Source: Pseudomonadota bacterium (lineage in GTDB: Archaea; Thermoplasmatota; SW-10-69-26; JACQPN01; JAJPHT01). Taken from it: a stretch of 64,000 nucleotides of DNA. Both the position numbers and the translations under genes were made by a program. This document shows, piece after piece, positions 46,047 to 48,620 of the stretch. The number at the start of each line of letters is the position of its first letter. Within the stretch, counting starts at the first letter, position 1. Location of the stretch: NCBI GenBank assembly GCA_021325135.1, contig JAJPHT010000022.1, forward strand, positions 1 through 64,000, in the 5' to 3' direction. The notes below the pieces were generated by a model, which worked only from the letters and a program-made list of their open reading frames with translations, had not been told where the DNA came from and made no database searches.

Positions 46047-46451
46047 ATGGCTCAACTTTCTCGTCGGGAAGCCGACTTGGAGATCATCACCGTCGAGGAC
46101 CTTTCCCAGGCGATCCAGGACCGCATTGGCCTGGGGCTTGAGGAGGCCGACCGCGACGCCGAGTTCGTGATGGATATCTTCGGCTTCAACGACCGCATCA
46201 TCGACAACGTCCTCGAGCCCGAGGACCGTCAGCTCTTCTACATCCTGGAGGAAGAGGGGCTTCTCACCACCGAGCGCGAGGAGACCACGCTCTACGACGG
46301 CCGCGAGTGGCGCACCCACTACTGGCTCTTCAGGAAGGACAAGATCCTCGCCTCCGCCGAGGCCGCCCGCGCCAAGGCCGGCTCCGCCGACCACGAGTTC
46401 GGCATCTACGCCGAGATGCCCGAAGACGTGTGGGCCGCCCGGAAGCGCTAG
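46047..46451 (+). CDS. DUF6015-like conserved Thermoplasmatota protein
   Basis: DIFGFNDRIIDNVLEPEDRQLFYILEEEGLLTTEREETTLYDGREWRTHYW. Confidence 0.7.
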   Translation: MAQLSRREADLEIITVEDLSQAIQDRIGLGLEEADRDAEFVMDIFGFNDRIIDNVLEPEDRQLFYILEEEGLLTTEREETTLYDGREWRTHYWLFRKDKILASAEAARAKAGSADHEFGIYAEMPEDVWAARKR

Positions 46452-46618: not shown

Positions 46619-46834
46619 GTGGCCCTTCCCCTCGACGTGCTTGAGCGCAGCATCAACAAGAAGATGTCCCTCCAGCTCAAGGACGGCCGCGTCATCGAGG
46701 GCAAGCTGGTCGGCTACGACCAGTACATGAACCTCGTCCTGGAAGAGAGCGAGGAGAAGGCCGGAGAGACGGGCCGCCGCCTGGGCACCCTCGTGCTCCG
46801 CGGCAACAACGTCGTGACCATCTCCCCGCAGTAG
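46619..46834 (+). CDS. Sm-like (Lsm/SmAP) RNA-binding protein
   Basis: PLDVLERS...GKLVGYDQYMNLVL (Sm1), LRGNNV (Sm2). Confidence 0.95.
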   Translation: MALPLDVLERSINKKMSLQLKDGRVIEGKLVGYDQYMNLVLEESEEKAGETGRRLGTLVLRGNNVVTISPQ

Positions 46835-46928
46835 GCCTGCCGGCGATCGCCGGACGCGGAACGCCTTATATATCGGCCGACCCCGTGTTTCAAAATCTAT
46901 AAGACACGGGGCATTCTGATAGGAACTC

Positions 46929-47068
46929 GGAAGGGCCCGGCTGGTAGTTGTTCAAGTGCATCCCATCCCCTCCTTGTGAGGCCAGCTTCGTCCTTCCACT
47001 CTCACATCCGCCAGCCCCTCTGGCGGACTCACCATTCTTCCAGGCCGAGCCCTGGCCTGATCCTTTCT
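46929..47068 (+). ncRNA. Candidate structured small RNA
   Basis: Closing stem plus two internal hairpins, upstream TATA-like boxes, 3' hairpin and pyrimidine tract; strand uncertain. Confidence 0.4.
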
Positions 47069-47077
47069 GCGTCGCAG

Positions 47078-47160
47078 GCCCGTCGCGTCGTCACGCCTTC
47101 GTCGTGACGACTTGCGCCGGACCTGCAGCCCGTCGCGTCGTCACGCCTTTGTCGTGACGA
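47078..47160. repeat. 33-bp direct repeat x2 duplicating the 3' end of map
   Basis: 47078-47110 and 47128-47160 match at 32/33 positions. Confidence 0.85.
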
Positions 47161-48040
47161 TGCACTCGGATTCGAGCACGAGGACGGTGTGCTCGAACTG
47201 CGCGACCTGGCCCTCGCCGATCTCGTGGAGGATGGGGTACTGCTTCACGGCGCCCGCGCGCTCCAGCAGGCGCATGGCGTAGGCCACGCGCTCGGGGGGG
47301 ACGGCGCCCGCGATCCAGCGCTCGGCGAAGGGGAGCTTGGGATATCGTTCCGCGATGTGCTTCAGCGCGTCGCGCGCGACGGGGTCGCGCACGGGGCGCG
47401 CGCCCATGAAGTGGTAGATGTGCCCGCCCTTGGTGTCGCGGATCTTGCCCGCGCCGGTGGTGCTGAAGGGCTCGATGGCGATGGCGGTCCCGGGCTGCAC
47501 GCGGCCGCGCGCGGTCTGCGCGACGTTGGGGATGGAGAGCCCCGCGTGCTGCACGTATTGATCCACGCTGTGCCCGGTGAGGTTCACGATGGGCTTGTAG
47601 CCGCGGCCGCGGATGGTGCTCTCGATGGCGCGGCTGATGTCCTCGATGGGGACGTTGGGCTTCACGACCTCCAGCGCGGCCGCCAGCGCGTCCCGGGTGC
47701 ACTGCATGAGGTCCGCGTGCTTGCTCGTGCCCACCTCGACGGTGATGGCCGTGTCGCCGATCCAGCCGTCCACCTGCACGCCGCAGTCGAGCTTCACGAC
47801 CTGGCCTTCCACGAACTCGCGCGCGTCCAGCACGGCGGGCGTCTCGTGCGCGGCGTCCGCGTCCAGGCTGATGCAGCAGGGGAAGGCGCACTCGCCGCCG
47901 TTCTCGCGGATGAAGCGCTCCACGGCCTCCGCGACGTCGATCATGCGCGCGCCGGGCTTCACCAGCGAGGCGCCGTACTCGCGCGCGCGGCCGGCGAGGT
48001 TCCCGGCCTTGCGGTACTTCTCGATGGCGTCAGCGTCCAC
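47141..48040 (-). CDS. map: Type II methionine aminopeptidase
   Basis: AFPC..S...AAH, KLDCGVQVDGWIGDTA, NLTGH, AIEPF, QFEHT. Confidence 0.95.
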   Translation of the reverse strand: MDADAIEKYRKAGNLAGRAREYGASLVKPGARMIDVAEAVERFIRENGGECAFPCCISLDADAAHETPAVLDAREFVEGQVVKLDCGVQVDGWIGDTAITVEVGTSKHADLMQCTRDALAAALEVVKPNVPIEDISRAIESTIRGRGYKPIVNLTGHSVDQYVQHAGLSIPNVAQTARGRVQPGTAIAIEPFSTTGAGKIRDTKGGHIYHFMGARPVRDPVARDALKHIAERYPKLPFAERWIAGAVPPERVAYAMRLLERAGAVKQYPILHEIGEGQVAQFEHTVLVLESECIVTTKA

Positions 48041-48620
48041 GGGCTTCGACCTCCGCCGCGCGAATCGCGCCCTCGCGCAAAACCTTTGCCTCATCGCCCG
48101 TGGCGTCCACGACGGTGTCGAGCCTGCCGCTGCGCGCGCCCGCGTCCACGACGAGCCGCGCCTCGGCGCCCGCGAGGTCGCGCGCGCGCCGCGCGTCGGC
48201 CGCGTCGAGGTCCGCCGCCGCGAGGGGCCCGAAGTGGCGCGCGAGGCGCCGCGTGAGGTCGACGCTGGGCGCGCGCACGGCGACGAGGTCCGCGCCCGCG
48301 GTCACCTCGTCGGGGATCCACGGGCGCGGCCGCAGGAGCAGCGTCAGCGGGCCCGGCCAGAAGGCGTCGGCGAGGCGGCGCGCCAGCGGCGTCGCGAAGG
48401 CGACCTGCTGCACGTCCTCGAAGCCGCCCACGAGCACCGGGAGCGCCTCGTCCGCGCTGCGGCCCGTCGCGCGGAAGAGGCGCAGCGCGGCCGCGTCGTC
48501 CAGCGCGTCGCCGCAGAGCGCGTAGGCGCCGTCCATGGGCAGCACGGCCAGCTCGCCCGCGTCGAGGAGCCCGGTCGCGCGCTGCACGACGTCCGGCTCG
48601 GAGTGCGCGACGAGCTCCAC
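48030..48620 (-). CDS. TsaC/Sua5/YrdC-fold protein with degenerate active site
   Basis: FWPGPLTLLL, VAVRAP and LREGAI are retained; catalytic motifs are altered. Confidence 0.8.
   Translation of the reverse strand: MELVAHSEPDVVQRATGLLDAGELAVLPMDGAYALCGDALDDAAALRLFRATGRSADEALPVLVGGFEDVQQVAFATPLARRLADAFWPGPLTLLLRPRPWIPDEVTAGADLVAVRAPSVDLTRRLARHFGPLAAADLDAADARRARDLAGAEARLVVDAGARSGRLDTVVDATGDEAKVLREGAIRAAEVEARGR

Follow-up and report, generated by a model that had tools for sequence, protein, structure and literature searches.

The window analysed here is a stretch of 64,000 nucleotides (nt), contig C24:1-64000 of G000, an archaeal metagenome-assembled genome (MAG) of 3.77 Mb and roughly 70% GC. 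Between a gene for an Sm-like archaeal protein (SmAP; the Sm gene) and the methionine aminopeptidase gene (map) lies a gap of 306 nt, and the subject of this report is a small RNA (sRNA) gene within that gap. That this gene is real is close to certain. The RNA belongs to a family that is new to Rfam and phylum-wide in Thermoplasmatota and, judged by its complementarity to the messages of division genes, it probably regulates cell division at the level of translation. An earlier note on this DNA had proposed an anti-Shine-Dalgarno (anti-SD) sRNA at this position. Its observation is partly confirmed and its interpretation of an anti-SD sRNA beside Sm is partly supported; the short motifs that it named were all found at or near their reported positions by a sequence check (Table 1).

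Conservation and structure of the RNA

GC content falls to 0.55-0.61 across 46800-47000, compared with 0.66-0.75 in the flanking genes, and a 211-nt stretch of the gap folds better than shuffled sequence (z -3.7, 0/200). When the gap was compared by BLAST with 40 relatives, 22 matched, and beyond the genus only about 70 nt (46929-46999) align, with 83-97% identity out to phylum level. The core of this alignment reads GGAAGGG-n-GGCUGG-UAG-(variable)-GUGCAUCCCAUCCCCUCC-UWGUGAGG-CCAGC-n-CCUUCC and is followed on its 3' side by pyrimidine- or U-rich sequence. An exact 18-mer of the core occurs in at least 120 contigs among 185,579 species genomes, and the matches listed are nearly all from Thermoplasmatota MAGs (Thermoplasmata, 'Thermoplasmatales', Poseidoniales).

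A covariance model (CM R1) consisting of two helices, P1 of 7 bp and P2 of 6 bp, was searched in 151 Thermoplasmatota genomes drawn evenly across the phylum, and full-length matches were found in 120 of them; the match in G000 scores 74 bits (E 1e-21). Covariation was counted on 83 matches (82 distinct sequences) realigned to this model. The paired state holds in 94% of cells (P1 93.9%, P2 94.2%), and covariation among relatives, which the earlier note had named as a check along with a search of Rfam, is present in 13/13 pairs (7 in P1 and 6 in P2), all of which show changes on both sides. Double-change cells number 157 against 38.6 in shuffles (0/500), and sliding the partners abolishes the signal, with the limit that a count made on an alignment fitted to the model favours the model. 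In a MAFFT alignment P1 was out of register and gave no covariation, and the realignment to the model was used instead. RNAalifold arrives at these two helices as well, with no pairing of AGUGCAUCCCAUCCCCUC. Variants of P2 include GGCUGG/CCAGCC, GGUCAG/CUGGCC and GGUUAG/CUAACC, and those of P1 include GGAAGG/CCUUCC, GAACAGGG/CCCUGUUC and GAACCGG/CCGGUU. The multi-stem fold reaching out to 47070 that had been drawn earlier gives way to these two helices within the conserved core; the pairing of 46932-46944 with 47040-47053, that of TGTGAG with CTCACA and the CAGGCC/GGCCTG hairpin proposed as a terminator are not conserved and are missing from both the minimum free energy (MFE) and the consensus folds.

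Within the core, all 83 aligned members share GCAUCCCAUCC with little or no change, and the consensus leaves it unpaired. In the MFE fold of G000 the 18-nt seed to which it belongs is likewise unpaired except for CCUC, which pairs with GAGG, so that the seed is conserved and, according to these models, accessible. Two unpaired linkers had earlier been read as anti-SD sequences. The first stands, since CCCCUCCU lies in the invariant, consensus-unpaired block, and this block is complementary to regions with a Shine-Dalgarno sequence plus start codon; the second, CTCACC, is not conserved.

The RNA could be assigned to no known class. Rfam 15 was scanned at gathering score and at E<=10 without a match in 46860-47070, and at E<=1 without one over the sRNA in 10 diverse or distant members of the family, and a literature search found no described Thermoplasmatota sRNA. 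A box C/D sRNA was rejected on finding neither UGAUGA nor CUGA in the core, and a box H/ACA sRNA on the variability of the 3 nt that follow P1 (ACU, AAU, AUU, UUU, CUU); as an H/ACA pocket, the internal loop between P1 and P2 is small, its two strands having just 3-5 nt and 2-4 nt. A tRNA, a 5S RNA and a signal recognition particle (SRP) RNA were considered from the sequence and discarded.

Several AT-rich genomes of family f18 (G032, G093, G102, G138 and others) have two to four matches to the model each, some of them separated by only about 230 nt of the same contig. A cdrS-ftsZ spacer site, of the kind described below, and not an sRNA gene, accounts for at least one of the weak matches in f18.

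Promoter, ends and genomic context of the sRNA gene

Of the two TATA-like boxes noted earlier, the proximal one, CTATAAG, is conserved together with its B recognition element (BRE) as TTTCnAAAnyTATAWR in 12 relatives, at a fixed spacing of about 27-28 nt before the core. In 19 members with GC-rich flanks AT content peaks at 0.91 between -30 and -26 from the 5' end of the RNA, compared with 0.25-0.6 elsewhere, and in distant families TATA boxes are found at the same distance from the sRNA. The 8-bp hairpin drawn around this box did not survive alignment, being present in G000 only and missing even in its closest relative; it may be a terminator of the Sm gene or a chance pairing. The AT-rich box near 46865 recurs in several GC-rich relatives and not in AT-rich lineages, and is not attributed to the sRNA.

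On the 3' side of the core the TCCGCCAG/CTGGCGGA stem of the earlier note is borne out as a GC-rich hairpin whose presence, rather than sequence, is conserved. GC-rich relatives (L002-L006, L008, L010, L012, L014 and others) have a hairpin in the same position with a different sequence, and the recurrence of hairpins of unrelated sequence in one place indicates that the stem is real. A U-run follows the hairpin in several GC-rich members, and in AT-rich lineages UUUU stands directly 3' of P1 in 44/81 in place of the hairpin. In GC-rich lineages the hairpin and its pyrimidine-rich tail probably extend the sRNA at its 3' end or terminate it, and the predicted 3' end falls at about 47003 or perhaps at about 47045. 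Taken in silico, these promoter and terminator signals point to an independent transcription unit.

The analysis supports a separate sRNA gene on the plus strand, right after Sm and under an archaeal promoter of its own. At 69/145 sites the 18-mer follows the end of a Sm gene of the same strand at a distance of 77-560 nt, and these sites come from GC-rich as well as AT-rich lineages. The position of map is more variable, with the gene upstream on the same strand at 16 Poseidoniales-type loci and downstream and convergent in the GC-rich order (tblastn synteny). The adjacent Sm protein may act as chaperone of the sRNA, and the U-rich segment between P2 and the seed is a possible Sm-binding patch; the U-rich 3' ends in AT-rich lineages and the adjacency of the two genes are further circumstantial signs of such binding. 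The complement of the U-rich segment, AACAAC..CCAG, is present in the ftsZ leaders of G000, G032, G068 and G021.

A different account of the conservation, also offered by the earlier note, is that the feature under selection is a 23-codon open reading frame (ORF) on the minus strand, opened in G000 by a strong Shine-Dalgarno sequence as AGGAGGGGAUGGG-AUG. This is now scarcely credible. The segment after GGCUGGUAG (46945-46955) differs in length by 1-12 nt among relatives, which shifts the frame, so that the ORF is not a gene; the frame is further broken in relatives by indels of 1-3 nt in its first codons, larger length changes follow right after the ATG, and the peptides are unrelated among close relatives. 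Conservation continues beyond the ATG on its 5' side for 40 nt, promoter and terminator signals both belong to the plus strand, and the minus strand folds no better than shuffled sequence (z +0.99).

Table 1. Positions of the sRNA gene, its parts and the features around it in the window
Feature	Position	Strand	Remarks
DUF6015 gene	46047-46448	+	Pfam E 6e-25
Sm/LSM (SmAP) gene	46619-46834	+	Pfam LSM E 8e-23; longest ORF start 46583
Distal TATA-like box CTTATATA	46865-46872	unassigned	about 32 nt upstream of the sRNA promoter
8-bp hairpin CCCCGTGT/ACACGGGG	46881/46904 (46881-46911)		encloses the sRNA TATA box in its loop
sRNA promoter	46888-46903	+	BRE-like TTTCAAAA and TATA CTATAAG (46897)
23-codon ORF, alternative reading	46890-46961	-	23 aa
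sRNA core	46929-47003	+	covariance-model match, 75 nt
P1 5' strand, GGAAGGG	46929-46935	+	pairs with 46991-46997 (UCCUUCC)
P2 5' strand, GGCUGG	46939-46944	+	pairs with 46982-46987 (CCAGCU)
U-rich segment UAGUUGUUCAA	46945-46955	+	length variable
Invariant seed GUGCAUCCCAUCCCCUCC	46956-46973	+	anti-start (CAU) and anti-SD (CCUCC)
CCCCTCCT	46967		
TGTGAG/CTCACA	46975/47001		
P2 and P1 3' strands	46982-46997	+	P2 46982-46987, P1 46991-46997
TCCGCCAG/CTGGCGGA	47007/47020		
3' GC-rich hairpin UCCGCCAG-CCCCU-CUGGCGGA	47007-47027	+	then pyrimidine-rich tail to about 47045
CTCACC	47028		
CAGGCC/GGCCTG	47041/47054		
TCCTTTCT	47061		
map	47141-48094	-	ORF; converges on the sRNA side

Complementarity to the cdrS-ftsZ spacer

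A class of matches to the 18-mer, termed 'type 3', lies on the opposite strand between a small ribbon-helix-helix (RHH) gene, cdrS-like, and ftsZ. The cdrS-ftsZ2 pair has been described as a conserved operon (PMC7439475, PMC8406309); in Halobacterium its translation appears to be uncoupled from the level of its mRNA, and there are signs of post-transcriptional control in haloarchaea (PMC8303175). In G000 the arrangement lies beyond the window but on the same contig, at its end, with the RHH gene at C24:104745-105019 (Pfam RHH_8/RHH_1) and the ftsZ ATG at C24:105184 (Pfam Tubulin). This contig end (C24:104745-105569), which comprises the RHH gene, the spacer and ftsZ up to codon 128, overlaps the terminal part of contig C17 in reverse-complement orientation (L150, L146), from which it follows that the contigs join within ftsZ and that ftsZ continues on the reverse of C17.

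The spacer of G000 is 164 nt long and reads GAGGGACGGGAUGCAC ... GAACAACAGCCAGG ... CAAGGAGUGAUGGGAUGCAAUCG, with CAAGGAGUGAUGGGAUGCAA as the translation initiation region (TIR) and the second AUG as the start codon, and the reverse complement of the sRNA reads CAAGGAGGGGAUGGGAUGCACUUGAACAACUACCAGCC (CAAGGAGGGGAUGGGAUGCAC). Sense copies of GGGAUGGGAUGCAC, together with lineage-specific extensions, are held in the RHH-ftsZ spacer. In the spacers of 22 relatives there are 1-6 sense copies of (G)GGAUGGGAUGC(A/C), the last of which mostly overlaps the start of ftsZ. When the reverse complement of the sRNA was aligned locally with the spacer of the same genome it scored above dinucleotide shuffles in 23/25 genomes (z 2.6-14.8); a sense-strand control of the same sRNA-spacer alignment stayed at background level. 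The matches extend beyond the motif in ways that differ between lineages. In G074 a lineage-specific match covers 32 nt (UGGGAACAGGCCAGCCAGUCAGAAGGGAUGGG against UGUGAAAAGGCCAGCCAGUCAGAAGGGAUGGG), a variant specific to family f7, GGGAUGCC..GCUACCAGCCC, is found in G068 and G021, and another, AGCUU..UGCUAGAGGGG, is specific to G029. Across 14 genomes the summed score of cognate sRNA-spacer pairs was 460, compared with 374.7 +/- 16.8 for permuted pairings (0/20000). Such a pattern of cognate pairs is what co-evolution of an sRNA with its target predicts.

When 125,468 windows of G000 were scanned for complementarity by sequence, the ftsZ TIR tied for ranks 6-10, and the first-ranked non-self window was a site just 3' of ftsZ, at C17:77787. 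Around that site (C17:77600-77800; about 1240-1440 in L146) two adjoining GC-rich hairpins bear GGGAUGGGAUGCAC and GGGAUGGAAUGCAC in their loops in the sense of the mRNA; they lie about 530 nt past the ftsZ stop codon and upstream of an ORF for a membrane protein of 172 aa. Folding of the ftsZ leader of G000 revealed no obvious internal anti-SD switch.

The strongest complement of the sRNA in any spacer is found in family f8, despite the absence of a FtsZ_C domain there. In three of its genomes (G074, G107, G135; L254-L256) the sole FtsZ-like gene is an open frame of 238-244 aa, preceded by an RHH-like ORF (identified by eye) and a spacer complementary to the sRNA.

One could read the spacer elements as degenerate inverted copies of the sRNA gene that give rise to cis-antisense RNAs against the leader, rather than as target sites acted on in trans. 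The order of the blocks mirrors that in the sRNA, and in AT-rich spacers a terminator-like CCUCC-AUUUUUUU closes the element when it is read on the sRNA-sense strand. The spacer copies are, on the other hand, without P1 and without the 3' strand of P2, and no promoter lies at a fixed distance from them; the sub-segments that are kept differ by lineage and always include the complement of the seed, and GC-rich spacers carry up to six short copies of the motif. We consider this account improbable.

The sepF and PRC-barrel genes and further sites

Two further genes of the division machinery carry the motif at their 5' ends. The sequence GGGAUGCAC, complementary to the part of the seed that varies least, is found at a PRC-barrel gene, 0-3 nt ahead of its start codon, in 15/19 genomes of the class; the remaining 4 have near variants. 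The presence of a TATA box about 25 nt upstream implies that the 5' untranslated region (UTR) of this gene is very short. In the order, 8 genomes have GGGAUGCAC ahead of the sepF start as well, and 2 others have near variants of it there. Pfam confirms the identities of the RHH, Tubulin/FtsZ, PRC, SepF and LSM proteins, and both the PRC-barrel proteins (CdpB) and SepF have been shown to be components of the archaeal FtsZ ring (PMC10120694, PMC12126565). The predicted target complementarity is thus both conserved and co-varying at the ftsZ spacer, and at sepF and the PRC-barrel gene it is conserved only. Co-varying complementarity to the cdrS-ftsZ spacer, along with that to the 5' ends of sepF and the PRC-barrel gene, suggests a role specific to division rather than a general anti-SD role.

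In G000 motif copies were also seen elsewhere. The leader of orc1/cdc6 holds three motif-like copies (C45:69815-69905, L264), GGGAUGGGAUGCAC-AUG is found at the start of an UPF0058 gene, CAAGGAGGGGAUACCAUGCAC at the start of an ORF for a winged-helix-like regulator (by eye) and GCGGGAUUGCAC about 75 nt upstream of a second ftsZ paralogue; the coordinates of these further sites include C37:17896 (L148), C6:65873 and C15 at about 150300. Other intergenic sites carry copies as well.

GGGATGCAC and GGGATGGGATGC are found close to the start of the sRNA gene itself and to those of ftsZ, sepF, orc1/cdc6 and the PRC-barrel gene. They might be taken for DNA operator boxes for a transcription factor of a division regulon, for example an RHH protein, with the sRNA gene merely bearing one of them. 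In Haloferax CdrS is indeed a DNA-binding regulator with a defined motif (PMC8406309), yet 15/18 of its motifs there lie 41-110 nt upstream of the transcription start site (PMC8406309), whereas the present boxes are downstream of the TATA box, in transcribed leaders, and always in one orientation. Operators would also leave unexplained the lineage-specific antisense matches of 24-32 nt and the covarying helices of the sRNA, and there is little to recommend them as an explanation.

A predicted regulator of FtsZ-based division

The reading that we favour, with a probability of about 0.6, is that the RNA acts in trans as an anti-TIR sRNA, by pairing with the cdrS-ftsZ spacer and ftsZ start and with the 5' ends of sepF and the PRC-barrel gene, in a manner analogous to DicF and sRNA41. 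According to this model the sRNA would be transcribed from its own BRE/TATA promoter, and the scaffold formed by P1 and P2 would present the unpaired C-rich seed, GUGCAUCCCAUCCC(C)UCC, beside the U-rich patch. The seed would then pair with the G-rich GGGAUGGGAUGCAC and with half-sites in the long spacer between the RHH (cdrS-like) gene and ftsZ, including the SD and start of ftsZ, and with the very short 5' UTRs of sepF and of the PRC-barrel (CdpB-like) gene. Pairing over the SD and start would be expected to block binding of the 30S subunit and so to reduce translation of the FtsZ-based division proteins, and pairing within the spacer may uncouple the cdrS and ftsZ cistrons or trigger processing of the transcript. 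Repression as the direction of regulation is assumed here by analogy.

Several observations weigh against this model. The transcript of the sRNA, its ends and any regulation by it are predictions from sequence. The energy-based, genome-wide RNAduplex ranking in G000, at 70% GC, failed to single out ftsZ. The genomes compared are related and so not independent, by which the statistics of co-variation and complementarity are overstated. Complementarity to the ftsZ spacer is weak in G107 of family f8 (z 0.9) and in G054 of the Poseidoniales (z 1.1), a genome with no RHH gene identified ahead of ftsZ; all 15 sampled f8 genomes are without a Pfam FtsZ_C match, and the exact 11-mer was not found at ftsZ in five complete genomes (f8, f28, f43), in which it occurs mostly in coding regions and in an insertion sequence (IS)-like repeat. 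The motifs at sepF and the PRC-barrel gene are restricted to their own order or class, and their invariance amounts to conservation with no compensatory changes. Adjacency to Sm is also missing in many families, and no Sm gene lies within 600 nt upstream in members of families f7, f8 and f20 (2-7 examined in each) or in the single members examined of f30 and f40. The phyletic pattern does not help, as the distribution of the sRNA does not follow that of the FtsZ_C domain and FtsZ is nearly universal in the sample.

A more general difficulty is raised by the 3' end of 16S rRNA, which in this phylum ends ...GGAUGGAUCACCUCCUA. The CAUCCCCUCCUA of the sRNA resembles the 16S tail GAUCACCUCCUA and thereby mimics the anti-SD sequence; GGAGGUGAU is the complement of that tail, and the motif contains AUG. 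Part of the match at the TIR is thus generic. The RNA might accordingly be a real structured sRNA whose function is unrelated to division, its complementarity being a by-product of generic SD and AUG sequences and of shared ancestry. A seed that resembles the 16S tail will fit any strong SD, many of the top complementary windows in G000 are inside coding regions, and the uninformative RNAduplex ranking and the weak complementarity upstream of ftsZ in Poseidoniales are in keeping with this possibility. It fails to account for the co-variation of extensions outside the SD-like core (the 32 nt of G074 and the variants specific to f7 and to G029) or for copies of the motif far upstream of the start codon in the sense orientation only, and the exact 18-nt and 10-11-nt matches of the AT-rich genomes cannot be due to chance. 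We regard a function outside division as unlikely, while giving it more weight than any of the other alternatives.

Archaeal Dim2 binds the 3' end of 16S rRNA. The likeness of CAUCCCCUCCUA to GAUCACCUCCUA could on that ground mark the RNA as a mimic or decoy of the 16S 3' end, titrating SD sequences globally or sequestering a factor that binds the anti-SD tail (a Dim2/Pno1-like KH protein, or Nob1), and the block is invariant over more than 18 nt, beyond what pairing of a seed usually needs. The most invariant part of the block, GCAUCCCAUCC, nevertheless precedes the anti-SD-like part on the 5' side and corresponds to nothing in 16S rRNA, family f8 has CCCUUC and not CCCCUCC, and the co-variation with the ftsZ spacer would be left unexplained. 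A decoy is for these reasons a rather improbable explanation.

A bolder form of the anti-TIR model can be put forward tentatively, at somewhat less than even odds. A single ancient sRNA, present in most Thermoplasmatota including the Poseidoniales and Methanomethylophilaceae-like lineages, may be the post-transcriptional master switch of FtsZ-based division, in which a seed resembling the 16S tail would read a GGGAUG(GGAUG)CAC code on the mRNAs of ftsZ2, sepF and the CdpB-like gene with Sm as chaperone. If true, this would be the first conserved riboregulator of an archaeal cell cycle and the first clear triad of Sm, sRNA and target in the archaea. Base-pairing sRNAs are seldom conserved past the genus, and in archaea targets are known for only very few sRNAs; the present family has a structure supported by covariation, occurs in about 80% of the sampled genomes of the phylum and comes with concrete, co-evolving predicted targets, and these targets (cdrS-ftsZ, sepF and the PRC-barrel gene) are at the centre of FtsZ-based division. 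Rfam would gain a missing family, the unusual length of the RHH-ftsZ spacers would be explained, and both post-transcriptional control of division in archaea and the function of Sm with sRNAs become open to direct tests.

Other features of the locus

In families f1 and f6 the DUF6015 gene is a conserved neighbour 5' of Sm, and rpS8e and SRP19 are found further upstream on the other strand. The gene rpl37e follows the Sm gene in many archaea. Its absence from this locus, as remarked earlier, holds true, and the gene was located on another contig (C40:59037-59195). A second Sm paralogue is present on C33. Beyond the sRNA a direct repeat of about 33 nt, GCCCGTCGCGTCGTCACGCCTTYGTCGTGACG, occurs at 47078-47110 and 47129-47161; each copy forms a small hairpin, and the second overlaps the last codons and stop of map. 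In a relative (L003, of G003) the 3' end of that genome's own map is in tandem duplicate, with a different sequence. The repeat pair could be the remnant of an integration site or a duplicated terminator.

Comparison with known systems

A functional parallel to the predicted pairing is DicF, an antisense inhibitor of ftsZ translation in E. coli, which is prophage-borne and of narrow range. Both are small, trans-encoded RNAs with an unpaired region complementary to the ribosome-binding region of ftsZ, and in both cases the host has a chaperone of the Sm fold, Hfq in E. coli and SmAP here. There is no relation in sequence or structure, and the present RNA has no Rfam match. The RNA described here is also chromosomal and phylum-wide, has two covarying helices and a regulation that is predicted from its sequence, and a long cdrS-ftsZ spacer holds repeats of its complement, which is also found at sepF and PRC-barrel genes. 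In E. coli an antisense RNA is noted to act at the 5' end of ftsZ (PMC8303175).

With sRNA41 of Methanosarcina mazei (PMC5867862) the likeness is one of position, the predicted site here being inside a bicistronic RHH-ftsZ transcript. The two differ in sequence, in targets (ACDS operons as opposed to division genes) and in range (one genus as opposed to a phylum), and sRNA41 is experimentally supported whereas the present RNA is known from sequence. The sRNA is homologous to neither DicF nor sRNA41.

RsaE/RoxS and the streptococcal csRNAs have an unpaired C-rich stretch between helices that is complementary to the SD and, in the csRNAs, also to the AUG. The seed described here is likewise a C-rich, unpaired anti-SD and anti-AUG stretch between helices. 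Those RNAs are bacterial and show no homology to the present one, in which the seed is 18 nt long and invariant and has a specific, co-varying predicted target.

On the side of the target, the halobacterial cdrS-ftsZ2 pair shares the RHH gene directly upstream of a ftsZ paralogue, the two being co-transcribed in Halobacteria (PMC7439475, PMC8406309). The ORFs are 3 nt apart in Haloferax (PMC8406309), whereas in Thermoplasmatota they are separated by a spacer of roughly 60-350 nt with repeats complementary to the sRNA.

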